Counted from the whole stretch's first letter, positions 22,975 to 57,500 are shown. The stretch: DNA of 63,793 nt, filler included, from Dugesia japonica (GCA_001938525.1; 5 parts of 5 records of this genome joined end to end with filler, not necessarily neighbours in it), one strand, 5' to 3'. Notes: a model not told the origin generated them from the letters alone. Numbers and translations are program-made.

Positions 22975-23970
22975 CAGATAAGTTTTTAATGAAGCTATTC
23001 AGAACATTTATTATTTAGAAATGCAACTCTCCATGGTATACCTCCCACTTATTTGTGTTTAGAAAATGAAACAAAAGGACATAAAAATACGTTTGGATTT
23101 CAGGAAATTGTTCGGACTAAACAAAGACATCTTTTTTCAATGCCTAACGCTGATGAAATGCTGGACAAGTTAGATAGAGCAAAAAATTTCTGTTCCATTT
23201 ATTTGGGAAATTTGGATTATTATATTGAGCTCGAAGATGAGTCTCAAGAAAAACGGCGTTTTCAATGAAGCACGGGTGATATTGATTTAATAGAATGACA
23301 TTTAGAATTGTAGTGGCACCGGGAACGTTTTAGAATATGACGACAAAAGTTGTAGGCAGAATAAATAGAGCCGTTGTTTATCTTAATGACATTCTGATAT
23401 TTAAGAACAATAAAGATCAACCCTATGAAGTTATTGACATAGCATTATCAACAGCAAGTAAAAAGAAGATAAAGACATTAGAAGCTACCAATTTATTTAA
23501 AGTGATATTCACAGATATATGTGGGCCAATGCGGGAAACAAGTGGACGAAAAAATAGATGCTTAGAATAATAGACCAGTTTAGTAAATATCTGGTTTTTA
23601 AAGCACTGCCTAGACAAGACGAAAAAACAATACGAAAAACTATTTTTGAGCAGTGGATTTTGAGATTTGAATGTCCTAGAGAAATAAGACTAGGTTGTAA
23701 ATCTCTCTAGGATATAAATCCAGAGTTATGGGAGAGTTGGCACAGAAGTTAGACATTACACTTTAGTTTTTGAGTTCCTATCATCACAATGTAAAGAGAA
23801 AAAATTCAGAGACAGTTTCGAACCATTCGAGATTTAATGCAACACTTCAGGAAAGAAAGACAATAGATTGAGTAGATATTTTACCGGAAATTGAATTTAA
23901 AATGAACCCAACAAAGAAAAAGACGACTGGAAAGAGTCCGGCTTAGATAGTATTTGGAAAGAAATTTAGA
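22975..23970 (+). mobile_element. Decayed Ty3/Gypsy RT (copy 2) joined by deletion to an integrase core
   Basis: Close to 17500-17970 at the DNA level (also YLND). It continues into FKVIFTDICGPM...DQFSKY...EQWILRFECPREI, the integrase core region. Confidence 0.85.
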
Positions 23971-29655: not shown

Positions 29656-29755
29656 NNNNNNNNNNNNNNNNNNNNNNNNNNNNNNNNNNNNNNNNNNNNT
29701 TAATTAATTAANNNNNNNNNNNNNNNNNNNNNNNNNNNNNNNNNNNNNNNNNNNN
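29656..29755. other. Artificial scaffolding linker (left boundary of the island block)
   Basis: N44-TTAATTAATTAA-N44. Confidence 0.9.
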
Positions 29756-30532
29756 TGATATTATGAGAGATAAATATTGTTAGTATGAGTGAGATAAATT
29801 GGTAAAGAATATCAACGAATTAGCAACATATGAGATTGAGCATGAATATATGAAATAGATGTTTCACAGGTAATAAGTGGTGGTTGAATTTCCTCTAATG
29901 TAAAGTTTTATGACTATAGTATGAGTATATGAGAAATATTTACTGTTTTCAATAAAAATATCAAGTTGAGTTAATTAGTTGTTCAATAAATGATTAAATC
30001 ATGCCCTTTTAATATCATAATTATTTATATTTTGTTTTGATTATTCATGATTATTATTGTTTTATATATTATAACTTTTTAATTGATAATAAATTCTCAT
30101 TAACATTATTTTAGATATTATGGTTAACATTAACTGTTTATTCGGTAGAAAAGATACCATGTGAGATAGACGGAAAACGGCAGAAGGATCATTCATGATA
30201 GCGAACGAACATAGAGTGAATAAGAGTGATTAAATAAAACTGACAATTAACGATTTCGCTTCTCGATATCAAATTGTTAAATTGAAAATACGGTCATGTA
30301 CTCTCGGTTCGGTCAAGTATGATGAGTGATCCTGTACCTGCTCAAGAATTAGTAAGGATTTTTTGTAACNNNNNNNNNNNNNNNNNNNNNNNNNNNNNNN
30401 NNNNNNNNNNNNNNNNNNNGTTGAAAACTATAATTCACTAATTTCATAATCATGATTGAAATTTTGTTATGCAGATGTCACGCCCGATCAAGCCAAAAGA
30501 AGCCAAAGCGAGTTCAAATCCCGTAAAAGGAA

Positions 30533-30775
30533 ATGGCTCGTCACAAAAAACAACATTTCGAGAAATCAAATCGATTAGAGGAACAAATTAGGAAACAAGA
30601 GCAACAGTACAAACATCAAATAACCAAAGTCATCATGAATCAGGAGGAGAGAGAAAAAAGACTAGTACGACTGCTGACAGATACTTTCGGGCTAAATAAC
30701 CAGCAACATAGATTGATTGCCACAATGAGGGCCACACAGTTGGAGGTGGAAGAGTTTACAAAGCAAACAATTTGA
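30533..30775 (+). CDS. Short coiled-coil protein of the island family, probably spliced and possibly decayed
   Basis: Q/E/K-rich heptads. LIATMR is shared with 31165 (LIATVR) and ARHKK with 34494. An upstream mini-exon MMSDPVPAQEL|GTAAG lies at ~30319-30351 with an acceptor TGCAG at ~30474. Confidence 0.45.
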   Translation: MARHKKQHFEKSNRLEEQIRKQEQQYKHQITKVIMNQEEREKRLVRLLTDTFGLNNQQHRLIATMRATQLEVEEFTKQTI

Positions 30776-31164
30776 CTAGCTAAAGGGATTGAGACCAAAC
30801 TCAGCTCCATATTGATGCCGTTAGAAGAGAGTGATTATATTGAAAATCAAGATTTGTGTCAGTATTAATAAAGCTTTCCATTTTGATTCATTTATTCATT
30901 TCAATGTAATTTAAAAGAAAATGTTTGTTTTAAGTATTGGCTAAAACTGTCAGTAGTATACTAACGTCAAATAAAAAAACTTATGATTTTCACAGTAGAT
31001 AACTCCATCTTTATTGAAAAAAAATTTCTTTATTACTTAACTTATTTGACTTCTATATTTCATTCAGTGCCAAATATAAGAAAATTAACATTGGGCACTT
31101 CAAGAACAGATCTTTAGAAAAGTGATGCTCAATGTACAAAATGTTGTAGAGCGAGAACACAGTT

Positions 31165-31365
31165 TTGCAACAGAAAAACTATCAATTAAGAGATCAGAAC
31201 GCGAAGTTAAGAGAAAAAGATTTGGGGTTGTCTCAAACAGGTCACTCAATGGCCGACATGATAAAATATTATGCTGATCTGGAAAGGGTACTAATTGCCA
31301 CCGTCCGTACCCTTAGTCAGGTGTCGAAAGTAGACAAGGAAGTTGAGCAAGTGGCTGTCGAGTAA
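31165..31365 (+). CDS. Short coiled-coil protein, paralog of 43638-43832
   Basis: EKDLGLSQTGHSMADMIKYYADLERVLIATVRTL aligns without gaps to EKELALQQANWLMAEIIKINATREAVVFNNLRAL. Confidence 0.55.
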   Translation: MQQKNYQLRDQNAKLREKDLGLSQTGHSMADMIKYYADLERVLIATVRTLSQVSKVDKEVEQVAVE

Positions 31366-32289
31366 GTGATCAATTTGAATGGTTAAATGTCATGAACTAA
31401 TAATAAATATTTTCTTTATCACACATCTTACAAATTGTTATTCAAGAAATATGTTCAAAGGAATTAAATTGAGTGAAACCAAAGTAAGATTGAAAACACA
31501 AGACGGGATACTGCATGGACTCGGGGTGGATGTAACAACACAGGGAGTTTTGCCAAATTTCTGCCGGCTCTGGGGTATCTGACCCTAAAAGATAATGAAA
31601 TAAAAAGAATGTCAAGAATTAAGTACCAAGAATCACAAGAGAGGAAATAAAACATCAAAACCTCGGAACTCAACAATTATATAATTATTATATTATATAA
31701 TATTATTATATTATATTATTATTCTAAATTATTTTAGAAGTATTGGAAAATGGTTCTGAGTTTCCAGGAAGTCTTTGAAATTTACATAGAATTTTAGAGA
31801 TCTGTGAGAAAATTATCCAAAATTTTACAGAACTCATGTAAATCTATCCAAAATTTTCAAGTAGTGTGAAAAATTAATTAAAATTTCACAGAAGTCATAA
31901 TTAGTTATACGTTAATAAAATATTTGATACTCTATTCACCTATATCCAAAGACCTTTACTGTAATCATTCACTTGTTTTCCTTAAGATTATTAAAAGTNG
32001 TTACACATATTTGTTTAATGGGTACAAGCCATTGATTCTTCACAATATAGTACTTAAAACTTGAATTTAATTAATTCCTATTTCCAAATAATGACTACTA
32101 TTAATTAAAAAAAATTTTTTAATAATAATTTTTTAAATATATATTTTTAAAATTCATTGTTTGCATTAAATGTAATCTTTTCAAATTTCTAAAATGTAAT
32201 ATTCAAATTTATAAGCCAAATCTTTTAGCAAGTGTTTAATATTATAAAGGAAAATGTTTCAACATATGTATATCTTCTATCTTAACCAA

Positions 32290-32950
32290 TACAAGTCAGT
32301 AAACCCTATACATTAATTAACCCAATACAATCAATGAACCCGATACATTTATTAAACCTATACATTCAATTTATTTACGTATTTGAGTTATGTATTGTAT
32401 TCAATGCTTTCATTTATATTAATCTAATCGTTCAAGTTAATCAATACAGCCACTTAATCAATTGAATATACTTATTTGTTCCATTAGACATAAATTTATA
32501 AGCAATAATCACTATTTTCATTAAATAAACACTAAGTTGATTCTAATGTTCACTGAGGGTTAACATGATTTATAGTTAAAATCCAATTCATTTTACAACT
32601 AATGATACAGGAAATCGAATTACATAGTTATTAAGTTATATAAAATTTTCTTCAAGATAAATACAGTAAATTAATCCCTTAATCAATGAACACAGTAAAG
32701 TCTATATGTGTATATATTTGCAAAGCTAATGAATAGAGTAAGCAAATAAGTAAAGTATCACAATGTGATAGAGTGGAACCAATGAATAGAGTAAGCAAAT
32801 GAGTATTATAAACCAATGTAATGCAGTCAACCAATATTTTACAGTGAACTAATGTGTAACAGTGAAACCGATGGTCACAGTAAAGCCCATGTGTTACAGT
32901 AAAACCAGTGTAATATATTAAAGTCAATGAATACCACATATAGTACTCGA
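32290..32950 (+). repeat. Degenerate minisatellite-like region
   Basis: Recurring short motifs (AACC(C)TATACATT, CAGT(A/G)AA(A)CC) and a duplicated AATGAATAGAGTAAGCAAAT at ~32728 and ~32781. Confidence 0.5.
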
Positions 32951-34493
32951 TCAAATCAAATTTTTAAATTTTTAAATCATTTTACAAAAAATTGATTTTA
33001 ATGTAAAATAATAAAATAAATAAATAAACAAATATTTACTCTGTGGTAGTTGTCGATAAAATGTTCTGGAAGCTTCTGTAAAAATGGTTTCGATGGCTTA
33101 AAATTTCAAATAATTTTCATAAAATGCTTTTAAGACAAAATTTTTAAATTCTTCTCCTCATTTTTTCCAAGTAATCTAGTTTTATTCATTTTATCGACAC
33201 CACGACTGGAGAGCTTTCACTACTCGCCAAATCGTCGATTCGCATTTCAGAATCTCGTCCGCTCATTGGTTCCTGGAGTCAGATTTACTCGAATCTTTGC
33301 TTGCCTGCATGCGCGATTGATTGACAACGAATTTGGAAAACCAAATTCGTGTCGTCGGGTGGATGCTCTAGTTGATANNNNNNNNNNNNNNNNNNNNNNN
33401 NNNNNNNNNNNNNNNNNNNNNNNNNNNNNNNNNNNNNNNNNNNNNNNNNNNNNNNNNNNNNNNNNNNNNNNNNNNNNNNNNNNNNNNNNNNNNNNNNNNN
33501 NNNNNNNNNNNNNNNNNNNNNNNNNNNNNNNAGTATTTTATATTATTTTTATTATTTGTCTTATTATTTCCTACTCGTACATCCAAATGTCATCGTTGTA
33601 TCTCCAAATTTGGGTCCTCTACGTCAAATTTTCATTTTTTTCCCGTTTCAATAATAATCGTATAATAATTATAATAATAATAATAACATAATAATAATGA
33701 TACTACAAGGCAAAATATCTGGTCCAGCACCTATATTTTACTTAATTTTCCGCTTGTTCTCTGTTAATTTTCGTATTATCTGGGGATGATTTGTTAGCTC
33801 TTTTCCACTAAAATTATTTGTTCTAGCCCAACAAATTACTGGGGGTCCTCAAAAGATTCCGCCCCGGAATTTCTCTCGAAAATTTCTTTTAGTATCATTC
33901 CCTTCGGAACCTCGTAACTTTATTCATCATAACCCGACTTCTAATCTTATCTAGGCTTTGTCAAATTTAAACCGGTCAAAAGGTCCCTCAAGCAAGAGTC
34001 TAATAGGTCATAAAATTAAGTAAAGTAACGAAAACAAGATGAAGAAACAAAAATACATTATTTCATTAAAATATCAATACACATGCATAATTAACCATCA
34101 TAATATAATCATAAATAAATAAACACACTGTCTACACAATTATTGATCAAATACTAGTCACTCAACATTTTAAATTCGCCGATCAAAAAGATTTTTTGTC
34201 ACTATATCAAAGGATAACTGTATAACCGTATAGTTTATTTACTCAGTTTCTTTAGTGCCAACAGAACCGACTTGGGAGATAACTTCAGCTTGGAGATGAA
34301 TAAACGGATTTGGAGACAACTTTGCAGCATAGAACCGCAAGATACACGAAAATGACCAAATTGACAGTAATGGACTGTCAGAGAACATTTGGATATGGAG
34401 ATTGTCATAGATACACATAGAAATAGTTTTACATATAATCATGCTAGTATGTAAATTGTTACACGCAGCACCGCACTGCTCGGAAAGAAGGAC

Positions 34494-34868
34494 TCACCAA
34501 CCCCAGAACAGATCCTCCTCAGACGCTGAATATGGCCATTGAGATAATTGTGTTGAATTGGGAAAACTACTGGAAGGTTGGGAATTGGATTGGTCGGTTT
34601 TCTGCTCTGCGTATTGATCCAACAAACTGACTTGGAGCGCTACTGCCCGCCCATTCGTTTTATAAATATAGAACGTTTGCTCTACCTTCGTCAGATTGAC
34701 CTGTCGAGGGGGAATTACTGCTCGGATAGGAACTTTCTTGTGACGCGCATTTTCATCATGAAGAAGTTTCATTGCATTTTCTAAATTCTGTATGTCGATC
34801 GTGTTTTGTTCTTTATCTAATTTCCATATTATGCTTTCTCTTACCAATCGTTCATTATCTTTTTGCAT
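34494..34868 (-). CDS. Coiled-coil protein exon of the island family
   Basis: N-terminal heptads and ARHKK. A TTACAG acceptor lies just upstream (~34902) and a GTGAGT donor overlaps the stop. Confidence 0.4.
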   Translation of the reverse strand: MQKDNERLVRESIIWKLDKEQNTIDIQNLENAMKLLHDENARHKKVPIRAVIPPRQVNLTKVEQTFYIYKTNGRAVALQVSLLDQYAEQKTDQSNSQPSSSFPNSTQLSQWPYSASEEDLFWGW

Positions 34869-35506
34869 CTAACTCAGTTTCTCTTGTTGTAACCGTTGAC
34901 CTGTAATACGAGCTTTGTTGTTGTTTTATTTTGAATATTTACTCATTAAGATATTGCAAGAGCTGATTATAAAAATTACGGATTAATCGAATTTTATTTG
35001 ATACTGATATTTAAAAATGGTTTTAATAATGTTTTATTTGTTGCCTTGACTGTATTGTATCCTGATTCCATTTTAATTTACAATTTACCGGGTATCACTT
35101 TCACAGATACACCACATGCCACTCCACACTGGGCCATTTACACACTAAATTTGACTTCTCCGACATTAGCGTCTCCCCAACACAGCTCTACAATATTCAA
35201 AAATCTTCAGACACTCTATATACAAATTGGCATTATTCGGATTACGCACTGATTAAATAACTATAATTGGCACTCTACTTATACTATACTTTTACTGTTT
35301 TTTGATTTTTTTGGAATACAAGTTTTTTTTACATAGTAATACATTTACTATTTAATACATATAATCTACAGTACTCTACCTCTCGACATCCATCGTCATA
35401 CATTACTATCTTCTCCGTACCACATCCTCTCACTAGTCTCGATAGTGTTTAAGATTTTGGATACGCTCGGTAATCGGTTAATTTGGGATAAGATAAGCTC
35501 TGCATT

Positions 35507-35737
35507 TTAAGTCTGTAACTCCTCTACTTGGTGTCTCAGATCCTCTACGATTTTGTTAGTTCCGCTCAAGGTTTGTAGGTAAAGATTTTGATTCTCGGTA
35601 ATCTGTCGTCTCTGGTTCTCTACTATTTTATTCAATTGGCGTATCTGCATCACATAAAAATTTTGATTCTCCACAAGGGTTGCGTTTAATTGTCGGGTCT
35701 GTTGTAACTGTTCGTTTAATACATCGGAATTCCTCAT
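35507..35737 (-). CDS. Short coiled-coil protein with an internal 25-aa tandem duplication
   Basis: ENQNFYVMQIRQLNKIVENQRRQIT / ENQNLYLQTLSGTNKIVEDLRHQVE. An upstream TTTATAG acceptor at ~35760 suggests this is a spliced exon. Confidence 0.5.
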   Translation of the reverse strand: MRNSDVLNEQLQQTRQLNATLVENQNFYVMQIRQLNKIVENQRRQITENQNLYLQTLSGTNKIVEDLRHQVEELQT

Positions 35738-36107
35738 TACGCTCCGACAGTGTTCGTCCTATAAATTCTACATTGCAAAATAAGGATTTAAAGGCTTATT
35801 AAGCACTTGGGGTATAAGTTTGCGCCGGTTTCTCCATAATTGTTCTGCCGACGTCGTCTAGCTCCATATTTACTGTTAACCGTCCATTCATTGTTATCTG
35901 TTTCTGTTCCATTTTACTAAAAAAAATACTACGGTAAAAAATACTACAGTGATCCTTTCTAAATCAAGTTTACAAATTACTCCATATTTTAATTTAAATT
36001 TATTCAGCTATGCTTTACTTTACATTTCGAGCTACTCAAAAACTACATTGTGTACCTTACTGTTACATTTAGGTAATTTATTTACAACTTTGTTTCCACT
36101 AATCTCC

Positions 36108-37054
36108 TCAATAACTCCACAACGACTCAGTTCCTCCCTCAAGGACTCCCATACGCACCAACTCTCTTGGCGGGTGTAAATATTTTGCTGTCAACTCTCT
36201 TAATTCCAGATCTAAACGCAGTCTCAGATACTGCCCTCGTTTTGCTTTACAGACTAATATTGTTTTAATCGTCATCATAATTATCGTAATGACGCCCGCT
36301 ACTCCACCACTGAATCCTGCTGGCCAATTCTTTTCATTTTCCAATTTGCTTTGCATCGTTGAGGCCTCGTGCCTCAACCTAGCTTTTACCTAGCTCAACC
36401 TTCGTGAACCGGTCTTTACCAACTCTTTCATCCATTTTCAATAAAATTGTCTTGTTGTCCATTTAAAATATTCGATGGCTTTCTCGTTGATTCACTTCCA
36501 GTTGTCGTTTTCACATACCTCGTCATTGCATGGTTTCTCTTTTTGCTTCGTACACTGGTTTCTCCCGTACCTTTCTTCATGAAAATTGTTGTTTTCGCCG
36601 TCGTGGTCGTTTTCGGATACACCATCGTCGTCAACTTCTGTGTTGTTGACTTGACCGTTGTCGTCTTTAAGTAAGTCTTCGCTTTTGTTCTCTCTTGTGT
36701 CGTCGGTTTGTTGCCCTGGAGCGTCTCGTCTACCAATATATATTCTAATTCTAACCACTCCCCGTTTTTTCGATTAAGTTTCATTACCATTTCATTTTGA
36801 TTGCAACCCCATCTATATTCTTGTATCATCCCATCTTGCGCCCAATATGTTAAAGATTGATATTGCTTAATTCGAAACAACCATTCTTTCCTACACGATA
36901 CTTGGAACGTACCTTCTGCATCTTGGGGTGTCCTTTGATTCTCTTTGTCTACTATACTCATTTTTATATCGATCATAGGCCACTCTCCTCTTCGAAAGGC
37001 GGCATGCTGTCCCCATATACCTGATGGAAACTGGTTCCATTGAATTCCTGTCAC
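36108..37054 (-). pseudogene. Decayed membrane-anchored protein: aromatic/Cys region, Thr-rich stalk, TM helix, basic tail
   Basis: The 208-aa ORF with KTTTVKSTTQKLTTMVYPKTTTTAKTT joins, through a frameshift near 36430 and one stop, to ..WPAGFSGGVAGVITIIMMTIKTILVCKAKRG. Confidence 0.55.
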
Positions 37055-37087
37055 ACCCCGTATTTCGCTCTTCTAGACTTTCGAGAT

Positions 37088-38547
37088 TTATCCCGCCCGT
37101 TTTTTCCGACATTTGTCTCTGAATTCGAGCCAGGCTGGCTCATATCGGTCACGCGTAAAATATAACACATGAATATAGTGGTTGTAATTAAAACTCCACT
37201 CTTGGTTGGCTTCGAATAATCCTGAATTATGGTTGATGGTAAGAAGTATGTCCTCATCCCTCACAACACCCCACGGTTCTTGGTTGTATTGGAAAATTTG
37301 AACTTGCTGTTTCTTATTACCTTTGATCTTGATGTCTAGAGACCAGGCGAATCTATAAATATCCAATCTATTTTCTTGAATTGCTCTAATCTCCTGCATT
37401 AACTCAGGTGTGAACGGCATTTCAAACAGGACATTGCCCTTGAGGTCCATCATTCCAATTACTACTATCTCGTCCTCGACTTTGTCATTATCTTTTGTGC
37501 CGCCCTCAAGAATCCCACAAAAGTTCAACGTTTCTGCTTCCTTTAGCGTTTTAGTTTTCGTTTCTGGTTCCGTAATTACATCCCTTTTTTTCAATTGTTT
37601 GCTTCGTTCTTCTTTCCACATCTCCACTTGACTTCGGCGCTTGCTCAAATTCTGTTCTTGTCCTTGTTTTGCTCATTGCCGCAGCGCTTGTAGGTACAAG
37701 TTTTTCATCGCTTCACTCTCTTCTACCAATAATGGTTGTGGATAAACATCTGCTATTCTCTGGTACTCGATTACCATATCTTCACTTCTTCTTAATCGTT
37801 CTTCGCACACTTGTTCGGTAAGTGATTTTTCTTCGTAAGATTCCTCCAGTTTTAGATATTCCTCTAGCTTTTTGTAGAGCGCACCATATTCTCTTTTATA
37901 TTCTCGTTCATGATACTTTTGGAGTTCTAGATCTGTGGGCCATTTCTCCATTCTATCCCCATTTCGTATCATGGATAACTTTTCTCCTGGACGTTCTGCA
38001 CCCCATTTGGGTTTTTTCCCTTGATAATACGCTTGCATTTCCAAATTTTTCTCTTTAGGTAGGTTCGTTCCACGACTCAATACTGTTTCTACTGTTAATA
38101 ATATGACCGTTTCTATTTCCTTATTTTTCTCCTTTCTTTTTTGCTCCTCTTCTGACGTTGGCCACTCTTAGGATTTCTTTTTCTCGATCGTTACTGGTAT
38201 TTCCGTCTTTCTTTCCTCTTTATGTTCCTCGATCCATTTTGATAACATCTTTCTCCGTACGCTTTAATCTTTTCTAGTATGGCTGTTTGCATCTCCACTT
38301 TATCTATAAAATACGCTCTCATCATAGTTATTGTCTCTGCAATAAATTGTACCGTCTCTGCCATCCTTTTGGCTTGCTCTGCTTTATATTCCGCATCATT
38401 TAGTTGTTCTTCATACTTTTCTTGACGCTTACTGTGGGCTTCCCACATAGTTTTTAATTTTTGTTTATTCTCCTCGGAGATAGTAAATTGAAAGTTTTGT
38501 CTCTTTAAATCGCAGTATGTTCTATTGCTCTCTCGCATCTCTTTCAT
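37088..38547 (-). pseudogene. Decayed large coiled-coil/charged protein (ORFs 38191-38547, 37673-38080 and 37088-37648 joined)
   Basis: The 37673 and 37648 ORFs are in frame and separated by one TGA (ALRQ*AKQGQEQNLSKRR). A frameshift near 38230 restores KWIEEHKEERKTEIPVTIEKKKS*EWPTSEEEQK, which echoes EKWPTDLELQK. Confidence 0.55.
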
Positions 38548-38629
38548 TATTTGTTTTTTTCAATAAATTTTTTGTGAATTCTCCGTATACGCTCATTGAA
38601 CAACAACTCAGGCCAATCACTCCCCCCGT

Positions 38630-39662
38630 TTAAAAATCGACGGCTTCGTCGATGCTTTGCATCTGAATGTTAGTTCCACTGCACCGTTCTTTTGGTGCTA
38701 TTGGTGTCAACGATTCTCCTTTAACTGGTATGGTTTGGCCTAGCTTTAACCATTTCTTGGCCTCATATAACACATTCATTGCCTCTTGCAATTGACCGCG
38801 CATATCGATTGCGCATTCCAAACACAATTCTTTGTATACCGTTTCTAGTATTGGCAACTCCAGTTGGACTTCTTCAAACATTGTGGCTGGTAGTATTATT
38901 TCGTTCGCCATTTCATCCAATCTAACTGATATACCATCGTCTTCCTGATCCAAATCCACTTCTTTGGTTTCAGTGGTATTTCCGACTCTGACGTTGTCGC
39001 TGGTTCCATTTAGGTGATCTCAATTTCTTCATCACTCAAACGATCTTCAAGATTCCAAATCTGCTCGATAATCTCATCCTCGGTGGTATTGTATGTTGTT
39101 GACTCCTTGATTGATGATTTTCTCGTCCGTCTTCTTGATTTGGCAACTACTTCACTCATGTTACCTAGTGTCATTGGTTGTACAAATGATTTTATCGATG
39201 TCTGACTTGATTCTAGTCCGGATTGCAATTTATTTTTAATTTCATCGGCTGATAATTTTCGTCTGATCAATCGTTTACTACCTTCCGGTTTGATATACAT
39301 TTTATTTTCTACCTTTTGTCAGATATTCAACGTTCCGATGATATCGTTATTTATTAATCCCGATTATTCAATAGTAGTACATATGGCGGCTTGAATGGAA
39401 TTTTGGATTTCATCTGCTCTACTGTCCCGTAAGCCAAATCCGAGATTCTCGATTCATGACCATCTGGTTCTACGATTCTGAAGCTAAATCTAAGTGGTAA
39501 TACTTCATCTTATTCGCATTTTCTCCATCTTGATATCAGCAGTTTAAATTGTTTCGGTCTCCATTTGCATTCCTCTTTACATCTGGATATTTCATAGGTC
39601 AATGATCTCAACTCCTCGATGGACAAATCACTCTGCAATAATTGATCCGCTATATGCTCCAT
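38630..39662 (-). pseudogene. Decayed protein with a ubiquitin-like domain followed by basic and acidic regions
   Basis: From ATG 39662: MEHIADQLL...CE*DEVLPLRFSFRIVEPDGHESRISDLAYGTVEQMKSKIPFKPPYVLLLNNR/LINNDIIGTLNI*QKVENKMYIKP runs into ORF 39010-39300. A frameshift near 39020 leads to DHLNGTSDNV...VDLDQEDD (ORF 38630-38959). Confidence 0.55.
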
Positions 39663-39673
39663 GCTTGTTTTGT

Positions 39674-41002
39674 TTATACTTTTTCTTGAATTTTGGATAT
39701 AAATTGATCTACCAGATCGGCGGAATCTCCACTACACTTTTTTGATTTACCGGACATTACGGCTACCATTTCTTGTGATCGACTAAACTCTTGATTTGAT
39801 TTGTATTGTCGATGTAATCTCGGTCTCTGCTGTATTACTGCTACCGTTTCTCGATTTGCTAATTCAATTTCCTCATGATGTAGTTTCAATCCCCATGGCA
39901 ACTTGGAATTGATATTATCGACATAATATTGTATTGTCTTTCTACACAAATTCTCACTAATTGACTTTAACATATACGGGTTTCTCTCATTTTCTCTACT
40001 TGCGATAATATAAACATTCATCATATGGCCTGGCCATATACCTGATCTCTTTACGGGATATTCATCGTGACTCTCAGTGATCTCTCCTCCACAATAAACT
40101 ACAATATCCTCTCGTTTGGTTATTGGTGTACTCTCTTTTCCTTTCACCGTTTGTTTATTCAAATGTTGGATAATTTTCTTTATTAATTTATCCCAACTTG
40201 TCGTCGTTTTAATATCGAAATCTTTACTTGATTCATCCGGAAAATCTACGGTTCTCTGCACATCTTGTTTTGATATGCTATCTGCATGAGTTATCGTTAA
40301 CGTATGTATAAGCGTGTACAACGTTTTCCCTCCTATCATACACAATTGATTCAATCTGTTTTTTATCTCTTGAATATTCAATTCTGTCATTTGATTGTAA
40401 TTCTCGTAAATTGTTAACGCCATCTTTGCCGTAGTCGGTTTCAAACTCTTCCATGGTTCACTCTCATTTTCCGCTTCTGCAATCCGCTCGATCTTCTCGT
40501 CAGTGACGATTCTCAAATATTCCATTTTATCTATTTCGTCTACATACACATTTCTCATTTTTGTTCTAATTTGACTAATTGACTGTAATTCAAACTTTTT
40601 CGGTTTTCCGTCATCTAATTCCAACGTTAATTCAGTAATCTCTCCTGGTCTCAATTGAAACTCAATCACATGTTGATCCCCTTTATTCAACTTATCCCTT
40701 TGTATAATAATATATACACACATAATTCGATACTTCTCAAATGTTTTCTCTAAAGGTAATTTACTCAATATTGCTCGCAACTCACCCACTCTGGTGGTTT
40801 GAAGTTTCTCAACTATTTTCGTCTGCATGGTCATGCAAAAATTATCATCCATCGTAGAATAATGGATTTTTACCCAAAAATCCGATCCTACTGTTGTTAT
40901 TACTATCATCTCCTGATACTCTTTAATTAATTCAGACCAATTCCTCCGTTGTTCCCATAGTATATCATAATGATAGTGTGCATCCCAGACTAAATTCAGC
41001 AT
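39674..41002 (-). CDS. 442-aa protein with at least two putative ubiquitin-like (beta-grasp) domains
   Basis: Intact ORF. Residues ~65-128 (TTRVGELRAILSKLPLEKTFEKYRIMC...DQHVIEFQLRPGEITELTL) are paralogous to the Ubl-like units at 41445 and 42250. Residues ~250-325 (TVDFPDESSKDFDIKTTTSWDKLIKKI...DIVVYCGGEITESHDEYPVKRSGIWPGHMMNVYII) follow ubiquitin spacing. Confidence 0.65.
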   Translation of the reverse strand: MLNLVWDAHYHYDILWEQRRNWSELIKEYQEMIVITTVGSDFWVKIHYSTMDDNFCMTMQTKIVEKLQTTRVGELRAILSKLPLEKTFEKYRIMCVYIIIQRDKLNKGDQHVIEFQLRPGEITELTLELDDGKPKKFELQSISQIRTKMRNVYVDEIDKMEYLRIVTDEKIERIAEAENESEPWKSLKPTTAKMALTIYENYNQMTELNIQEIKNRLNQLCMIGGKTLYTLIHTLTITHADSISKQDVQRTVDFPDESSKDFDIKTTTSWDKLIKKIIQHLNKQTVKGKESTPITKREDIVVYCGGEITESHDEYPVKRSGIWPGHMMNVYIIASRENERNPYMLKSISENLCRKTIQYYVDNINSKLPWGLKLHHEEIELANRETVAVIQQRPRLHRQYKSNQEFSRSQEMVAVMSGKSKKCSGDSADLVDQFISKIQEKV

Positions 41003-41008
41003 TCTTCA

Positions 41009-42057
41009 TTACGTTTGTTTCTGAATTAATTCCTTTCTCTCCAATGTGATACCCATGTATTTGTTTATTGCAGCTAAGTTATGATAGAAGTCCTCATTAC
41101 TGTCCTCGTTGTCAGTAGCTGATGTTTCACTCGGCTTATTCACACTTCGTTCTCCAACATTATTTGATTGTTTACCACTCTTTTTACCTCTATTTATTAT
41201 TTTACTCGAAAATGATCTCGAAAACTTTTCATCATTAACTTCTTTAGTAGATTTAATAACAACGCTCGGTATTTCAACTTTTGGTAATTCACTTGACTGG
41301 ATTTCCAGTGGTGCCCTCTTCTCTGATATCGGCGCGAGATATTTGATTTGGCATTTATTCAACGAAATCATTATATTTTTAGTTGTTCTAAAGTAGAAAT
41401 AGGCCAAATTAGTTCGTTATATAAACGCATTCTCCGACTCTCCAACAACGTAATTACCAAAGTAGTTCCAGATTTTAGACCATATTCATAAATATGGGCA
41501 CTTACATCATTGATGCTAACTACTGACACCGGTGTACAAACAATATAATCGCCTATGGGTTTTGCCCACTCAACCTCCTCCAACGCATTGAGTAAATCTT
41601 TTACAATCGTTCCTTTCAGTTTTAACACTCATGGGATTTTTTACTTGGTCGCCATTGGTACTTTCTTCAAAACCTGATCCATCGTAATGTATGCAGTTCT
41701 ATCTTCATCCGGTCTCCAGGCTTCCATTGCTTTGAATTTAAAATCCTCCACGGTTGTATTTTCTATAAACGTTTTCTCATACTCAAGAATTATTGGTCTC
41801 CACCTTTGATTGATCATCGTACCCATATGTCCTGGCTCCGCTAATTCAACCAAATGATACATTAATTTCCAATAAACCTTTCTGGTTAATTCATCTTTCA
41901 ATAATTTAGCATCCATTATGACTGTTTCTACATAAATATACACTCTTGTTTTGTATCTAATCGGTGCATTTGATCGCGCTGGATTTCTTTTGGTTATCAT
42001 ACTGATTTGAGCCATGGTATTTTCTGTTTTCGATGCTCCTCTTGTTTGTAGAGTCAT
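41009..42057 (-). pseudogene. Ubl-domain gene A2 (three ORF-track pieces joined)
   Basis: 41641-42057 and 41371-41628 are in frame via ATK*KIP*VLKLK; a frameshift near 41410 leads to AYFYFRTTKNIM. Ubl-like core: TIVKDLLNALEEVEWAKPIGDYIVC...AHIYEYGLKSGTTLVI. Confidence 0.65.
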
Positions 42058-42761
42058 TAACTGTCTGATCTCTCCAGAAATCCTTGCTGTAATTTACTTA
42101 TTCCTTTGGTTGTAGTTTTTGACTCCGTTCGTACTAACACCATTTATTTGTGATATTTCTTATCAAATGATTTTACTATTTGCTCGGTTGTTCTGAAATC
42201 AAAATAATACTACAATGGTCGTTTAATACGATGCATTTTTACTAAATCTATTAACTTTATTGTTGTTTTACCTGACCAGACTCCATATTCCGATATATGT
42301 GCTTTAGCATCATCTTTTTCTATCACTTTGGTTCGAGAACACAACACATACTCTTCGATAGGCTTTGGCCATGCCAGTTCATTTACTGCTTGTAATAATC
42401 CACCCACAGTAGTATCCTTTAACAAAATTTTCCTAGGTATCTCTTGATCTTTCAATTCAGTTGAATCTTCATGTGTGACTGGCTTAATCATACTATAATC
42501 ATCGGGTTTCATGTGACTTCGAATTTCCGATTCATATTCTTGCGCCTGAGGAAACCACACTTGACTGGTGTACACATCTAATTCACCTGACTCCATTAAC
42601 TCCAACACATGGTTCATCAGTGCCTAGTATGCTTCTCAGTAGACCACTGCCTTGAATGTTTGAATCATTGTAACTTTATCCTCCACTTGCCTCGTTATCA
42701 CTGCTCTTTTTGCTGTTAGTTTTGCCGGTAGTTCTACCTCCATTGGCTGAGCTCTCATCAT
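42057..42761 (-). pseudogene. Ubl-domain gene A1, tandem paralog of A2
   Basis: One frame from ATG 42761: MMRAQPMEVELPAK...VY*EAY*ALMNHVLELMESG...DTTVGGLLQAVNELAWPKPIEEYVLC...AHISEYGVWSGKTTIKLI...RPL*YYFDFRTTEQIV...SDS*. The final TAA overlaps the A2 start codon (TAATG). Confidence 0.65.
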
Positions 42762-43637
42762 ATTTTATTGTCCTTGATTATTTTCTCGCTTTTGTATTCT
42801 CTCTCTAGCCACATGCTGCTCCTCCAATTGTAATTGTAAATATTCTTGCTCTTGTTTCAACTTGTCAAAAACTCGCTGTTCTGTTTCTTTATCACATTCT
42901 ACTACAATTTTATCGATTTTCAAAATTTCAATTTTTTCAAATAATTATTTATTTCGTAAATCCTATTCAATTCCGACATCATTTCATCAATTAGCCAAAT
43001 TTCTGACTTTTAAATAATCATTTATTTTCATGATTGCTATTTCACACTAATTTAAAGAAACAATTTTATATTTTATCTTTCTCGATTCATTGATCAGCTT
43101 CTTTCCATCATAACCATTGTTTCATTATTTTATTTCATATTCATTTGCTGATTGTGGACTATTAATCCATTTGATACAGATTTTATTTGGAATGATTAGT
43201 AAAATTCCCAGCTGAGCCTCCAAAATAATTGTTGGGTTTTTAGGATTTTAAATAGTTTGAATTTAACATCTGCATTTGTCGACATCGATTATTTTCCTCG
43301 ATATATAAGTCGATTTATTTAGTCTAGGGGCATACCTGAAAACCACAAGCATTTGAGTCACCTCTGTGACATGCCCCTCTTCTCAAGTGTTCAGTGCGAC
43401 TTTGCGGTATCGCGTCTTACGTTTTCTTTTCATGGACCCACATCTCAATCACACTTAATTGCTCAGTATTGATTTTACATAATCAGGTTTGATAAAATTT
43501 AACTGGTCATACATAACCGCGAATAAACATAATAAGAATCAATGACGTTAAGAACTATTTATTCGCCTCTATTCACATGCATCTAACTCCACCAACTTCC
43601 CTTCGCGCGGCTCATCCGTTGGGTTTCGGTACAACAA

Positions 43638-43832
43638 TTACAGTGCCCTCAAATTGTTGAACACCACGGCCTCTCTTGTTGCATTAATTTTGATAATTTC
43701 GGCCATCAACCAGTTGGCTTGCTGCAATGCCAACTCTTTCTCTTTTTGTTGTTGATATTTGCTACTATGCTTGGTAGCCTGGCTTTTCAGATGCAGCACT
43801 TCATTTCTTAGCGCACGACGCTCCTTTTCCAT
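43638..43832 (-). CDS. Short coiled-coil protein, paralog of 31165-31365
   Basis: See 31165. An upstream TTTCAG acceptor at ~43891 suggests a spliced exon. Confidence 0.55.
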   Translation of the reverse strand: MEKERRALRNEVLHLKSQATKHSSKYQQQKEKELALQQANWLMAEIIKINATREAVVFNNLRAL

Positions 43833-44484
43833 TTCTTCTGTAGGGCTATCATTTCTTTTACTGGAGTCTTATTATCTTTTATCGAATTCACTGAAATAAT
43901 CATAATAAATTATTTTAGCATTAATTATTAAACTAAGTAATAGTTGAATTATAAATCAAGAAATTTTTAAATTATTTCAATTATTTACAGCGTTAAATCT
44001 TAAACTATGAAATCGCTTCTTATTAATGCTAATCTGAGAATAAAAGTCGATTGTATACCACAGCATTATTCAAATAAAATTTATTTCACAACCCCGACTC
44101 AATGATGTTTTATCGATTTGATATAAAAAAAGTTGTCCGGTGGTTACCCCGTCTCTTCGTAAATAATCATAAACACAGAGGACTCGTTATATTCCAATAT
44201 GCTCTAATTTACGCATGCATTTCTCATCTTCATTCTTATTTTGGTTTATTTAATTAACGAAAAAGTTCTATTTATCTAACAATTAAAATTAAAATTATTC
44301 AAAGATTGCCTCTGCAATCACCGTGACATACATATCACTTTAATCTTTCAAACTAAAATGCAAACAAAACAAATCAACAAAACAACTCTCGTTTGACAAC
44401 GCTACACATTTTATTTACTGTAGTAGGCAGATATGAGCGCACCAAACCAGGGCCCCCCAAGAGGGTACCCCCACCCCCTTTTTA

Positions 44485-45312
44485 GACTCCACCCCTTTTT
44501 ATCTTTTGGACTCCGCCCCTTTTTATCTTTTTCTCCGCCCACTTTTTTTGACCACGCCCACTTTTAATCTTTTTTGCCTCCCACCTTTTTAACCACGCCA
44601 TTTTTATGTTTTTCTCCGCCCACTTTTTTGGCCACGCCCCTTATTATCTTTTTCTCCGCCCACCTTTTTGACCACGCCCCTTTTATCCTTTTCTCTGCCC
44701 ACTTTTTTGACCACGCCTCTTTTTATCTTTTTCTCCGCCTACTTTTTTAGCCACGCCCCTTTTTATCTTTTTCTCCGCCCACTTTTTTATCTTTTTCGCC
44801 GCCCACTTTTTTTGGCCACGCCCCTTATTATCTTTTTCTCCGCCAACCTTTTTGATCACGCCCCTTTTTATCCTTTTCTCCGCCCACTTTTTTGACCACG
44901 CCCCTTTTTATCTTTTCTCCGCCCACTTTTTTAGCCACGCCCCTTTTTATCTTTTCGCCGCCCACCTTTTTTGGCCACGCCCCTTATTATCTTTTTCTCC
45001 GCCCACCTTTTTGACCACGCCCCTTTTATCCTTTTCTATGCCCACTTTTTTGACCACGCCCCTTTTTATCTTTTTCTCCGCCTACTTTTTTAGCCACGCC
45101 CCTTTTTTATCTTTTTCTCCGCCCACTTTTTTATCTTTTTCGCCGCCCACTTTTTTTGGCCACGCCCCTTATTATCTTTTTCTCCGCCAACCTTTTTGAC
45201 CACGCCACTTTTTATCCTTTTCTCCGCCCACTTTTTAGCCACGCCCCTTTTTATCTTTTCTCTGCCTACTTTTTTTGGCCACGCCCACTTTTTTTTACTC
45301 GCCTACTTTTTG
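44485..45312. repeat. Tandem array of ~40-bp units (CCACGCCCCTTTTTATCTTTTTCTCCGCCCACTTTTTT[GA/GG/AG]) with ~343-bp higher-order periodicity
   Basis: About 20 units are visible. The variant order starting GCCACGCCCCTTATTATC at 44631 recurs at 44974. Confidence 0.95.
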
Positions 45313-45441
45313 ATGACTCATAATTTTTTTCAAAAAATTTTCTATGTCAGAACAAAGTTACTTTGTGTTATTTACATAGTAACGCTGTATAATACGTATT
45401 ATAAGGATTATGAGTGTAATATTTACATAGTAACTCTGTAT

Positions 45442-45541
45442 NNNNNNNNNNNNNNNNNNNNNNNNNNNNNNNNNNNNNNNNNNNNTTAATTAATTAANNN
45501 NNNNNNNNNNNNNNNNNNNNNNNNNNNNNNNNNNNNNNNNN
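45442..45541. other. Artificial scaffolding linker (right boundary of the island block)
   Basis: N44-TTAATTAATTAA-N44. Confidence 0.9.
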
Positions 45542-54379: not shown

Positions 54380-54479
54380 NNNNNNNNNNNNNNNNNNNNN
54401 NNNNNNNNNNNNNNNNNNNNNNNTTAATTAATTAANNNNNNNNNNNNNNNNNNNNNNNNNNNNNNNNNNNNNNNNNNNN
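54380..54479. other. Artificial scaffolding linker
   Basis: N44-TTAATTAATTAA-N44. Confidence 0.9.

Positions 54480-54542
<63 letters not shown>
54480..54542. repeat. (ATT)n microsatellite
   Basis: About 20 perfect units; similar degenerate tracts at ~700-735, 12180-12265 and 22853-22890. Confidence 0.95.
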
Positions 54543-54545
<3 letters not shown>

Positions 54546-54589
54546 TTAATTTTTATTATGATTATAAATATAAAAATAAACACTGAATA

Positions 54590-57500
54590 CGGAAAACTTA
54601 ATATTGGCGTTGTACATAAAGCTTGTTTGATCTCATTAAAGCTTTTTTTGCACTCTTCAGTCCATTGAATTTCTTGTTTATGGCCTCCCATTGCAGCATA
54701 TAATGGTTTAGCAAGTAACGAAAATTTTTTAACAAGCTTCCTGTAATAGATTGACTAAAAAAGAACGTAATTGTTTAGTGCATTTTGGTATTTTTGCTTT
54801 TGCAATTTCGAAGACTTTCTGAATTCAGACTCAATCCGTCTTTGCTAACTGTATGGCCTAAAAATAACAATTCACTTTGACATAATTTACATTTATTTAA
54901 ATTGATTTTGAGATCAGAAAGAATTTTGAATTCTTTGAAATACATTGACAAGTATCATGTTCTGATCGACTTTTTGCAAATTTTAAAATATCGTCAATAT
55001 ATACAACTACATCTTTAAATAAAATCCCATCCAAAATTGCATGAATTTCTGAAAAGTAGCTGGAGCAGTTGATAACCCAAATGTCTTACGATTGTAGTAA
55101 GATTGTCCCTTCTTTGTTGAAAATGCCGTTTTAATCTTATCTTCTTCGTTTAATTCTAATTGATAATAAGGTTGTCCCACATCCAACGTTTAAAATATTG
55201 TACAACCACAAAGGTGATCAAACAAGGTTGGTGGATTTGACATTGGGAATGAAACTTCTTTGTAGAATTATTCAACATTCTTAAGTCTTGGCACATTCTG
55301 ATCGCGCTATTCTTTTTACCAACAATTAGCATCGAAAAATTCCAAGCACTTCTGCATTCTTTGAAAATATCACTTTCTGATACTCTTCCTGTGTCAAATG
55401 AGATGGTTATAAAATATAAAAATATGAACATATGTTAGAATTATTTATTTTTATTAATGATTAATTCCTAAAATAAATTTTAAAATTTTTAATAAAGAAA
55501 TATTTTCAAATACGAATTGATTCGAATTTTTAAATTATTTAATGTGGAAAAGTTGTAAATAATTTCTATAATAAATAAATGTTTGCTTTCAAAATAATTA
55601 AATTTGTTAAAAAATTTTGTTATAACAGAACCTTGGTTCTTACCTGGGCCACTCTAACCACGGGGCTAAATTGGCTATAGTCCCAGGTGGCAAGACTTTT
55701 GGGCGGCAATTTTTATTTGCTATACATATTCAAATTTTTGTTATTATTAGTTATTTAGTTATTAGTTTTAGAAAAATTCATTTTTCATTTTATTAGTTTT
55801 CACGTATTTTTAAATTAAAACAATTTCTTAAAATATTTAACTGATTTTTATATTCAAATGTGCTGGAATGACAAACGATATTACAATAATTTATGATGTC
55901 ATCAACTTCGATAGACGACTTAAATGTAAGCAGAACACCTATGCATACTCACCGCCAGGGTGTATTTCTTTATCTAAACGTAATTTATATTATTTTAATA
56001 ATCCTACTCAAAGATAGGAACAGGTTACTGATACTTACCTGAATAAAAACTATACGACAAAAATTAATTTTATATAATTTTAGTATTTTTGTCCGGAAAT
56101 GTTTTTTAATTTTATTTAATTCAATTTTGTGTTTTTAGTATTTAGGTAATAAATTAATTTTTTCCAGTTCTGACACTTTTGTATAACTTTGCTAGAGACC
56201 CCACTCCCGTTTGCTATTCTGTGAACTATCTTACAAAGAGGGGTGCATTATTTTTAGTAGTCCATAGGCGCCGTATTTCTAAAAAGATGGTCTAGGTTGT
56301 TAATACGAGCAAATAAGAATCTCAACAATATACTGAGATTAGTTTAACTATATTGTCTGAAGGCAATTATTACAATAAAAATAGGCTTAAATGAAAAGTA
56401 TATATTAACGATTATGTGGATGAATACTCTTCAACTGATTCTTTGCTTCATGTACATACATACGTACATACAAATTGTTCATATATATATATACAACTCA
56501 ATTACACTCCATGAAAACCAATCGAATTATCAAAAAATATAAAGTATTCAAGATGATTTTTACACTTTTAACGAATTCTGGAAAAAATCAATGGTTAAGT
56601 CCTATCATTATTCTCGCAATACTTGTATTGGTTGACGTCAAGGTTGTTGTAGAATATGGTCACCAACTGTTGGAATAAAATGTTTTACAACATGTGTTTT
56701 TCCAAGATTAAAAGTATCTGCCATAAATATATTTGAAAACTTTAGAAGCATTTCTTTTAAATTATTTTCTTTCGGTTTTTAATGCTGCTAAGGCTGTCTT
56801 ACAACGATCATTATCAGTGAATTTGTTGTAAATGTTCTCTGAGTCCAAAATATTAAGCATTTTTAATTGAATATTAAATGCATTAAACATATCAATTCCA
56901 CCAATAAATTCTGGATTTATTCCATCAACAATCACAATGTAAACAATTTTCTTCACATTTTCAAATTCTATTTCAACTTTTCCAATTCCTGAACAGTTCA
57001 CTGCTTCTTGAAAATGCACCACTCAATTTAATATTGCATTTATCCAATGGAAAAGATCCACTGTCTCTCCATAACTTTGTATGCATCACTAATATTAAAG
57101 CACCTGTATCCCACAACATTTCGACCATTTTAATTCTAACTTTGACAATACTCTGTTTTACCACAAATTAGACAACATGATTTCAGAGGGCAGTTATTAA
57201 GTAAAAGACCTATCAGACCCCAGCAAAAATATGAGCCTTTTTTAATTGTTCCTCTTTTGGGGGAGGAAGTCCTTTTGATCTATTGTACAATTTCCTTGCA
57301 ATAAACTTCATGGAAACTGTTGGCATATTTCTAAATTAACCTTCTCTACTGTTTTTGGAATCATTAAATTTTTCAGCAATTGGAATTGCCTTTTCAATTT
57401 CATTATTCCTAGGTTTATAATAATTAGAACCTTTTAAATCAATTTTCTTAATTCTCAGATTGTAACTTGCAGCTGCCACTTCTCAGTAAGTCAACTTATT

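Follow-up and report, generated by a model that had tools for sequence, protein, structure and literature searches.

Among known architectures resembling the locus reported here is that of the Burro elements: one giant polyprotein, encoded by an ORF of 4,873–5,140 codons, in which Ubi2/SUMO-like domains are followed by BCL2 and an Smc coiled coil (PMC6431247). Burro accessory ORFs are either separate or fused, copies number in the thousands, and decayed fragments bearing stops and frameshifts occur in a related species (PMC6431247). In their accessory ORFs the Terminons of rotifers, which are giant Penelope-like elements, encode coiled coils and transmembrane segments (PMC6431247). Platyhelminthes have GAG-ENV-POL errantiviruses of the HSV/gB type, for two of which 45 and 215 copies are listed (PMC13524379), and for Maverick/Polinton elements the end motif is given as (AGT)2 (PMC8097293). 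A search of the literature returned no description of a pol-free planarian element of the kind detailed below; it may already be catalogued in Repbase or in the primary Burro paper.

The window is a 63,793-nucleotide stretch of Dugesia japonica DNA (GCA_001938525.1), filler included. Within it the segment 29,756–45,441 is bordered on each side (29656–29755 and 45442–45541) by a join of the form N44-TTAATTAATTAA-N44, a pattern that occurs four times in the window. Because the supposed linkers are scaffold joins, the flanks are unrelated scaffolds; and because the segment is a scaffold in its own right, its contrast with them is partly an artefact. Of the sharply bounded island described in an earlier note there remain the higher GC (0.374 at 36,108–42,990, 0.247–0.257 in the four other scaffolds of the window) and the coding signal at 36.1–42.9 kb. 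The note had also taken the entire 15.7 kb as one cassette, whereas the depth profile reveals a mosaic of at least four repeats: treating the segment, array included, as a single island is probably wrong. Details are given in Table 1.

Table 1. Features of the scaffold, in window coordinates (X1 is a DNA sequencing run).
Position	Strand	Feature	Evidence
29756–45441	.	Separate scaffold, mosaic of repeats	Assembly joins on both sides; depth profile
29756–31690	+	Lower-copy repeat with small coiled-coil frames (30527–30772, 31150–31362), opposite orientation	Depth 1,800–4,200 in X1
32121–32980	.	Unrelated very high-copy repeat with short internal repeats	Depth 13,600–83,000 in X1; repeat families D5, D7
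34498–34900	-	Exon-like frame in lower-copy repeat	AG acceptor, GTGAGT donor; depth 2,400–5,300 in X1
35290–35356	-	ATTAAA, then A-rich runs; end of high-copy core	Sequence; X1 depth 33,703, then 9,615, then 4,812
35510–35758	-	Small coiled-coil exon-like frame within high-copy core	Behind AG acceptor; depth 32,000–34,000 in X1
36108–42944	-	Decayed long ORF, ~2,280 codons, likely one polyprotein	Hand-chosen path: 20 in-frame stops, 8 frame changes
36249–36305	-	Single predicted transmembrane helix, then basic tail to stop at 36108	Kyte-Doolittle 2.12 over 19 aa
36431–36715	-	Thr-rich stalk-like stretch	24 T and 6 S in 95 aa
37097–37108	-	RKKR, possible furin-type site in strand-rich orphan region (by eye)	Regex; one of many six-frame matches; weak
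37826–38424	-	Charged, predicted coiled-coil region	By a simple own heptad score, 38424 and 37909 rank highest among 12 frames
39280–39509	-	Fifth ubiquitin-like candidate, broken by frame change and stop	hhalign
39510–39970	-	Helical region, BH3-like motif LKSISENL at start; Bcl-2-like by eye	
39974–40249	-	SUMO-like pattern candidate	By eye
40622–41044	-	Probable repeat unit 3	phmmer iE 0.006–0.06 to units 1 and 2; alignment
41386–42036	-	Repeat unit 2	phmmer match to unit 1; alignment
42183–42797	-	Repeat unit 1, helical part and Ubl-like pattern by eye	phmmer iE 2e-20 to unit 2, ~205 aa; alignment
43322–43420	.	99-bp motif, copy number far above core	Joined to core in several contigs
43641–43890	-	Small coiled-coil exon-like frame upstream of long ORF, lower-copy segment	Acceptor; point depth 379 at 43677
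44422–45441	+	Probably the end of another element, Maverick-like	AGTAG end, then ~40-bp GC-box/GATA array, cut by scaffold end

The core of the scaffold is a dispersed repeat, present in roughly hundreds to a few thousand copies, and is neither a host cluster nor a contaminant. Diverged copies of it occur at high depth in DNA runs of the organism that stem from four studies (2014, 2015 and 2025). Median summed contig depth across 21 bins (35,357–43,021) is 40,196 in run X1 and 10,615 in run X3; contigs covering near-unique DNA at 34,063–34,530 have 15.5 and 8.9, and the resulting ratios of ~2,600 and ~1,200 are order-of-magnitude estimates, as summed contig depth does not equal copy number. 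In X1, 16,719 contigs were placed, 10,800 of them less than 95% alike. Depth is greater in the 5′ half of the long ORF (37,600–68,900) than in the 3′ half (14,400–41,900), and LTR-like extra depth is not seen on either side of it. The 99-bp motif reaches a point depth of 283,122 (at 43355 in X1); contigs join 43248 to 43322, RNA loose ends lie at both of its edges, and it gave no Rfam match and fold z values of -1.0 and -1.5. The small frame beyond it has a paralogue, on the opposite strand, in the lower-copy repeat at the other end of the scaffold (31150–31362; phmmer iE 5e-5). Run X8, from organism B, was considered as a second species: its 487-base contig has the same placement and difference count as a contig of X3, from the same study, at ~1/15 of the depth, and for this reason it was not counted.

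Raw RNA records place sparsely: 508 of 13.6 million from run X12 on 33,532–44,470 and 36 of 11.6 million from X15 on 29,756–36,200 (a quarter of the run in each case), mostly less than 95% alike and on both strands. A run search for the sequence listed no RNA run. The RNA data thus give no sign of a strong ORF transcript, which is not proof of silence.

The earlier note's description of near-gapless, same-strand coding at 36.1–42.9 kb holds well. The sense (minus) strand of 36,108–42,990 is 39.7% A, and stop-free frames of at least 80 aa cover 86% of it; the corresponding cover is 19% on the antisense strand, and 200 first-order shuffles averaged 5% and reached 19% at most. The same note saw here separate genes abutting within 0–12 nt; the gaps prove to be mostly in-frame stops and frame changes of one reading path, which was picked by hand. 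Among the 40 of 1,411 differences to other copies that were listed, 7 of 35 lie in six of the 20 stops (0.3 expected; P = 2e-8), the other 14 stops being outside the reach of this test. Two of the eight frame changes coincide with indels listed for other copies, the match between units 1 and 2 (205 aa) spans stops in both, and many junctions between pieces keep frame. Most likely, then, the 'abutting genes' are pieces of a single ORF of ~2,280 codons, broken in this copy, which is dead.

Internally the ORF contains diverged repeat units. The earlier note held most of the proteins to be paralogs; among 16 segments phmmer supports only units 1 and 2, weakly unit 3, and one small coiled-coil pair. 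The units have drifted apart to ~30% identity without loss of the open frame in the parent, which suggests long selection on the protein. The labels of ubiquitin-like (Ubl), SUMO and Bcl-2 domains reflect patterns recognised by eye, and the Ubl labels of the earlier note find no support in Pfam, PDB sequence search, ubiquitin profile or AlphaFold, with one marginal exception. This is the fifth candidate, for which hhalign against 98 viral ubiquitins gave E 0.04 with none of 40 shuffles scoring as high, one of five tested; the other four did no better than shuffles. HMMER with a ubiquitin HMM returned at most 0.6 bits along the path (null mean 2.0), and hhalign of the unit alignments gave probabilities of 0.08–0.21%; the profile is narrow (98 viral ubiquitins) and the negative therefore weak. 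What we take by eye to be a SUMO-like pattern (39974–40249, minus strand) drew no support from the PDB sequence search, and 19 of 40 shuffles do as well as it does against the ubiquitin profile. LKSISENL is the sole BH3 regex match in six frames, and the helical region that it opens has no Bcl-2 match among PDB sequences or in Pfam. Both AlphaFold models were unusable (pLDDT 35 and 43); Foldseek on the first returned nothing at E 0.001, a result without meaning at that model's confidence. Towards the C-terminus the Thr-rich stretch of the proposed membrane protein is borne out by its composition, and one hydrophobic segment stands clear of the next best (2.12 versus 1.29, Kyte-Doolittle, 16 segments). 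The candidate Env region (36,428–38,236) has no Pfam, PDB or protein-library match.

Searches for replication genes and homologues were blank. As the earlier note had observed, there is no RT, pPolB, Rep/Hel, integrase or capsid motif: the six-frame search found no CCHC knuckle, retropepsin, YxDD, HHCC or polB, and none of 22 plus 4 proteins passed the curated cut-off in Pfam (best E 8e-4, below cut-off). No match was returned by protein searches with the 442-aa ORF, the unit 2 frame (against longer proteins) or the three-unit alignment, by the 603-aa C-terminal frame against 1.84 billion representatives, by PHROGs (11 proteins, best E 0.003), or by the PDB sequence searches; one Atlas search was blank and the other gave a single 0.76 match. 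Scans of the locus against viral, metagenome and prokaryote genomes were blank, and in the protein, viral, metagenome and prokaryote collections searched there was no sequence link to any retroelement. Neither an LTR pair nor a TIR pair lies within the 15.7-kb scaffold, which is too short for a total of >30 kb. There is no convincing polypurine tract; a GGGGGGAG-TG run near 38,625 was dropped because it lies inside the coding path and coincides with no depth step. The view of this DNA as mobile, coding for orphan proteins and free of a replicase is upheld.

We suggest that the core at 35.3–43.4 kb is a decayed copy of a repeat that likely encoded one polyprotein of ~2,280 residues, of a Burro/errantivirus-type gypsy lineage, its enzymes acting in trans or lying outside the scaffold; we give this reading a probability of about 0.5. 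Four other explanations bear on the same data. The least credible by far makes the locus a contaminant contig or a normal cluster of host genes. Its higher GC and its status as a separate scaffold would fit this, but depth is very high and copies are diverged across the runs of the four studies, the locus joins near-unique DNA at 34,063–34,530, no prokaryote or viral relative turned up, and the RNA reads are few and mostly diverged; the comparison of read depth that the earlier note had suggested contradicts a single-copy host cluster, and depth in the four studies contradicts a contaminant. A true cassette of at least seven short abutting genes, as first proposed, is distinctly improbable: several pieces do begin with Met, and small, spliced-looking frames flank the ORF, but six stops coincide with sites where other copies differ, paralogous units align across stops, and many junctions are in frame. 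The compact cassette of separate genes is thus probably wrong; since 14 of the 20 stops lie outside the 40 listed differences, true gene boundaries may remain.

An improbable alternative is that a large DNA element, be it Maverick/Polinton-like, a Helitron or an endogenous DNA virus, carried the locus as cargo and used the array as its terminal enhancer. The ~40-bp tandem array noted at one end is indeed present (44,480–45,311), 1.5 kb from the start of the ORF, and with its AGTAG end motif and the intronless, A-rich coding it lends such cargo some appeal; the end at 44,422 faces away from the ORF, however, so that the element it starts extends to higher coordinates and leaves the ORF outside; neither a second end nor a TSD is in the scaffold. 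Depth between ORF and array is 1,934 in X1, ~5% of the core, and the array probably belongs to another element. The reading path contains no pPolB, HUH-helicase or integrase motif, and there are no viral relatives. Pfam, PHROGs and motif searches found no Maverick/Polinton pPolB, integrase, ATPase, protease or capsid gene; no Helitron Rep (HUH)/helicase ORF was found, three HUH-like regex matches all being on the plus strand outside the path, and the single Walker A match is out of frame with it. The Maverick or Helitron kinship entertained in the earlier note draws no support from the ORF. Quite unlikely, finally, is a non-LTR retroposed unit, or an accessory reading frame within a giant Penelope-like element of Terminon type, that uses a host-genome RT and ends in a poly(A)-like tail. 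ATTAAA and A-runs exactly at the depth drop, the missing LTR pair, and the coiled-coil and transmembrane accessory ORFs of Terminons (PMC6431247) speak for it. Six frames hold no motif of a PLE reverse transcriptase, though, Rfam gave no hammerhead at E up to 5 (the sole regex match is inside the ORF), none of 58 TRF rows is a telomeric array, and depth is greater in the 5′ half, the opposite of 5′ truncation.

Under the Burro/errantivirus-type reading, a single RNA would be transcribed from the 43.4-kb side and end near the A-rich tract at 35.3 kb. Cleavage might then release modules into the cytoplasm, resembling ubiquitin/SUMO and Bcl-2 by eye, which would interfere with protein turnover and cell death in the host, together with a C-terminal membrane-anchored protein borne on its Thr-rich stalk at the surface of cell or particle. 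As the protein has no copying enzyme, the element was likely helper-dependent, the helper probably being one of the giant retrovirus-like transposons of planarians: Gag, Env and RT/integrase could come from such a helper or from a stretch of this element lying 5′ to the Maverick-like insertion. In a bolder form, which we think possible but unlikely, it would be a cargo-only satellite of an enveloped retroelement, with some thousand or more copies, no capsid or polymerase, a selected 2,280-residue polyprotein of host-modulating modules plus surface protein, and a life cycle split with a replicase element. The accessory cassette of an uncharacterised large element claimed earlier survives as mobile, orphan and replicase-free DNA, and probably falls as a cassette of separate genes and as a 15.7-kb unit.

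Pipelines that seek RT or transposase would file such an element, very abundant but lacking a replicase and coding for an orphan protein in a 6.8-kb ORF, as an 'unknown repeat'. If related to Burro, it would isolate host-modulating cargo from replication genes, and a review's open proposal of meddling with apoptosis and ubiquitination could be tested on a separate unit. There are also two cautions: in a fragmented assembly, what look like abutting 'genes' can be one decayed ORF, and the linkers at joins can give the false impression of an island.

Among known systems, Maverick/Polinton elements resemble the locus in the AGTAG start at 44,422, which recalls the (AGT)2 end motif (PMC8097293); the end here reads AGTAGG rather than AGTAGT, one end is seen, and no Maverick gene is present in the scaffold. 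The likeness concerns the array and not the ORF. Terminons are alike in the coiled-coil and transmembrane features of their accessory ORFs (PMC6431247) and differ in that the scaffold is without RT, hammerhead or telomeric repeat. LARDs share with the proposed element non-autonomy, mobilisation in trans and a size under ~10 kb; two LTRs enclose their interior of captured DNA, which need not be coding (PMC6431247). The interior seen here is pol-free and holds a long ORF whose internal units have diverged; neither an LTR pair nor a PPT was found in the 15.7-kb scaffold. GAG-ENV-POL errantiviruses come from the same host group and are enveloped gypsy elements with a single ORF; they are defined by Gag, gB-type Env and Pol, none of which was detected here, and their Env carries conserved cysteine bridges, as against 1.1% Cys along our path (PMC13524379). 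Burro/GYPSM1 differs in several respects. Regex (six frames) and Pfam found no Gag with CCHC knuckles at the start of the ORF; no PR, RT, RH or IN motif (retropepsin, YxDD, HHCC) was found, and these could lie outside the scaffold; and there is no recognisable Env, which Burro has between BCL2 and PR, the locus showing only a TM helix, the Thr-rich stalk and RKKR. The ORF has ~2,280 codons versus 4,873–5,140, no LTR pair was found in the 15.7-kb scaffold where Burro has a long pair and a total of >30 kb, and there are three to five Ubl-like candidates versus one, compared by description and not by sequence. The kinship with Burro is nonetheless plausible, its one basis being the order of domains read by eye: Ubl-like units, SUMO-like, BH3-like, coiled coil and membrane protein, which recalls the Ubl/SUMO-like then Bcl-2-like order and the coiled coil of Burro. 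Other shared features are a high copy number (ratios of ~1,200–2,600), a very long ORF in a group where accessory ORFs are known, and decay by stops and frameshifts.

Spacers of the form N44-TTAATTAATTAA-N44 at 11,081, 29,656, 45,442 and 54,380 show the window to consist of five joined scaffolds. Because the block (29,756-45,441) coincides exactly with one of them, its flanks are unrelated DNA: the higher GC claimed for it stands (0.374 in the coding block against ~25% in the remaining scaffolds), while the picture of an island set in contrasting flanks partly reflects the joins. By eye the other scaffolds contain animal-type exons of the usual kind and gypsy-like debris; no connection of the gypsy-like fragments to the block was found.

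Features of the window, with depth in DNA run X1
Position	Strand	Feature	X1 depth
207-638	+	Aldehyde (methylmalonate-semialdehyde) dehydrogenase-like exon, by eye	
12,404-13,678	+	Frame of 424 codons with N gap; seven-helix receptor-like, by eye an ordinary host gene	
17,505-17,974; 22,989-23,446		Two RT-like pieces by eye, 88% identical; decayed gypsy-like	
29,756-32,120		Scaffold segment	1,800-4,200
30,470-31,365	+	Small coiled-coil exon-like frames in a lower-copy repeat	
32,121-32,980		Very high-copy repeat, short internal units variable; parts skipped or repeated in many contigs	up to 83,000
34,271-34,485		Scaffold segment	295
34,486-35,345		Scaffold segment	2,400-9,600
35,346-43,021		Scaffold segment	>14,000
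36,108-42,944	-	ORF	
40,622-41,044	-	Unit 3 (probable)	
41,386-42,036	-	Unit 2	
42,183-42,797	-	Unit 1	
43,322-43,420		99-bp motif; inverted arms AGGGGCAT/ATGCCCCT; AG/GTATG donor-like end (minus strand)	283,122 (point depth)
43,641-43,890	-	Small coiled-coil exon-like frame in a second, distinct lower-copy repeat	
43,752-44,116		Scaffold segment	1,934
44,480-45,311		Array of ~40-bp units; on the minus strand GGCGTGG 17x (none elsewhere in window), AGATAA 15x; TGAGTCA site at distal edge	
54,428-55,434; 56,762-58,164	-	Gag-, protease-, RT- and RNase H-like pieces by eye; decayed gypsy-like	
61,534-61,779	+	81-codon frame, signal-peptide-like start, evenly spaced cysteines; from sequence, possibly a small secreted peptide	

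The near-gapless same-strand coding on an A-rich sense strand is real. Over the ORF the minus strand is 39.7% A, and stop-free frames of at least 80 aa cover 86% of it; the opposite strand reaches 19%, and none of 200 shuffles exceeded that figure. The compact, abutting genes of the earlier note are likely a single broken ORF. Across the three minus frames a single path of ~2,280 codons can be traced, interrupted by 20 in-frame stops and shifting frame eight times. Among the 40 differences to other copies that were listed, from a total of 1,411, 35 fall in the ORF, and seven of these lie in six of the 20 stop codons, where 0.3 would be expected (binomial P 2e-8, two hits in one codon being counted separately). 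Other copies have indels listed at two of the eight frame changes, and a match of ~205 aa between units 1 and 2 runs through stops in both. Most apparent gene ends are therefore likely breaks of this copy, and the ORF is likely one polyprotein frame rather than a cassette of genes; with 14 of the 20 stops outside the listed differences, there may be two or three long ORFs instead.

Part of the stretch is present in 10 runs from four studies, each holding at most 28% of its words. Contigs placed on 33,532-44,470 at 80% likeness number 16,719 in X1 and 9,531 in X3 (a second DNA run), most of them less than 95% alike. Median summed contig depth in 21 bins of 35,357-43,021 is 40,196 (X1) and 10,615 (X3), versus 15.5 and 8.9 on a near-unique stretch (34,063-34,530); the ratios, ~2,600 (range 930-4,400) and ~1,200 (380-2,300), are of summed depth, which is not copy number. 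The ORF core is a high-copy dispersed repeat, probably of hundreds to a few thousand copies. In X5, from a third study, the depth profile on 29,756-36,200 is the same as in the other DNA runs. Two RNA runs (X12, X15) gave few reads on the block, diverged and from both strands.

The scaffold is a mosaic of segments of differing depth, and less of an island than the single 15.7-kb unit reported. Steps in the profile place the core between ~35.3 and 43.0-43.4 kb. Two X1 contigs join 43,378 to 44,322, so some copies of the element, at least, include the segment upstream of the ORF. The 99-bp motif, far above the ORF core in depth, probably inflates its two bins; its flanks vary among RNA reads, it had no match in Rfam, and its predicted fold is no better than shuffles. 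We take it to include an AP-1-like site and a p53-like half-site. Small coiled-coil exon-like frames with splice-like signals lie on both sides of the ORF; one pair shares 40% identity over 35 aa, and blastn of the DNA gave no match. The array units contain what are presumably GC-box/KLF-like and GATA-like candidate sites. On the plus strand, the sequence at 44,422 starts AGTAGGCAG and runs into the array; vertebrate Mavericks begin with (AGT)2 or (AG)3, according to the available text of PMC8097293. An element with this AGTAG end would extend away from the ORF, and the array, earlier counted as part of the island, thus probably comes from another, Maverick-like, element of which one end is seen.

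At its N-terminus the ORF encodes a short coiled coil, followed by the repeat units, of which unit 3 is a weaker match than units 1 and 2. Next come a pattern resembling SUMO, a helical region that begins with a BH3-like motif, and a fifth Ubl-like pattern. The rest consists of regions that are charged or coiled-coil, an orphan region containing RKKR and, towards the C-terminus, a Thr-rich stretch, one hydrophobic helix and a tail of basic residues. Ubl, SUMO and Bcl-2 are labels given to these patterns by eye. The aligned units are ~30% identical (unit 1 versus unit 2, iE 2e-20; unit 3, iE 0.006-0.06). For the proposed Ubl genes there is one marginal case: by hhalign the fifth candidate, one of five tried, scored above 40/40 shuffles (E 0.04); for the remaining four, 8, 19, 27 and 29 of 40 shuffles scored as high. 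On the path, no score of a profile built from 98 viral ubiquitins rose above its null. AlphaFold gave pLDDT of 35 and 43 on two pieces. The proteins are orphans as claimed, with no homologues in protein collections, Pfam, PDB sequences, PHROGs, Atlas, or viral, metagenome and prokaryote-genome searches. Nor does the block contain Gag, protease, RT, integrase or pPolB motifs, in agreement with the earlier note on RT, pPolB and integrase.

What is observed is that the element is amplified, that its long frame is an orphan with diverged duplicates inside it, and that this piece has no replicase. At a probability of about 0.5, we consider the parent element to carry a Burro/errantivirus-type cargo polyprotein, copied by giant gypsy enzymes in trans or from a lost part. 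Such an element would make one polyprotein, with cytoplasmic modules that would target the ubiquitin and death pathways of the host and a C-terminal part that would be a membrane protein; Gag, RT and integrase would be supplied in trans by a giant gypsy element or, alternatively, by a part of the element lost beyond the Maverick-like insertion.

The core has ATTAAA and A-runs at its 3′ edge, and no LTR or TIR pair lies within the scaffold; a non-LTR or Penelope-type unit is the foremost alternative, and improbable. Cargo of a DNA element or virus, to be set beside the neighbouring Maverick-like end and the absence of pPolB, ranks after it. A true multi-gene cassette, to which the 14 stops outside the listed differences and the differences at the other six both bear, is more doubtful again. 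A host gene cluster is rejected by depth ratios in the thousands and diverged, dispersed copies in several studies, and a contaminant contig on the same depth evidence; read depth contradicts both of these outcomes, named beforehand as fatal to the island, and their chance is negligible.

The giant gypsy class is favored because the published Burro layout resembles, by eye, that of the block. In the available text of PMC6431247, Burro has one huge ORF with Ubi2/SUMO-like, then BCL2 and Smc coiled-coil regions, accessory ORFs separate or fused, and copies in the thousands. Flatworm errantiviruses are GAG-ENV-POL elements with a single ORF (PMC13524379, available text); BURRO1 is enriched in the intestine and de-repressed by smedwi-2 knock-down (PMC8532177, likewise); what is available of PMC11410931 mentions Burro once, without detail. 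The literature searched, as available, holds no pol-free planarian element of this kind; the primary genome paper, its supplements and Repbase lay outside the search and may describe one. What was called the accessory cassette of an uncharacterised large element is real: an abundant element of unproven class, whose long ORF is an orphan and likely not a set of separate genes. Gag and Pol belong to Burro but are absent from the block within the scaffold, and for this reason we do not file it as Burro; by analogy, it may work like the cargo half of one.
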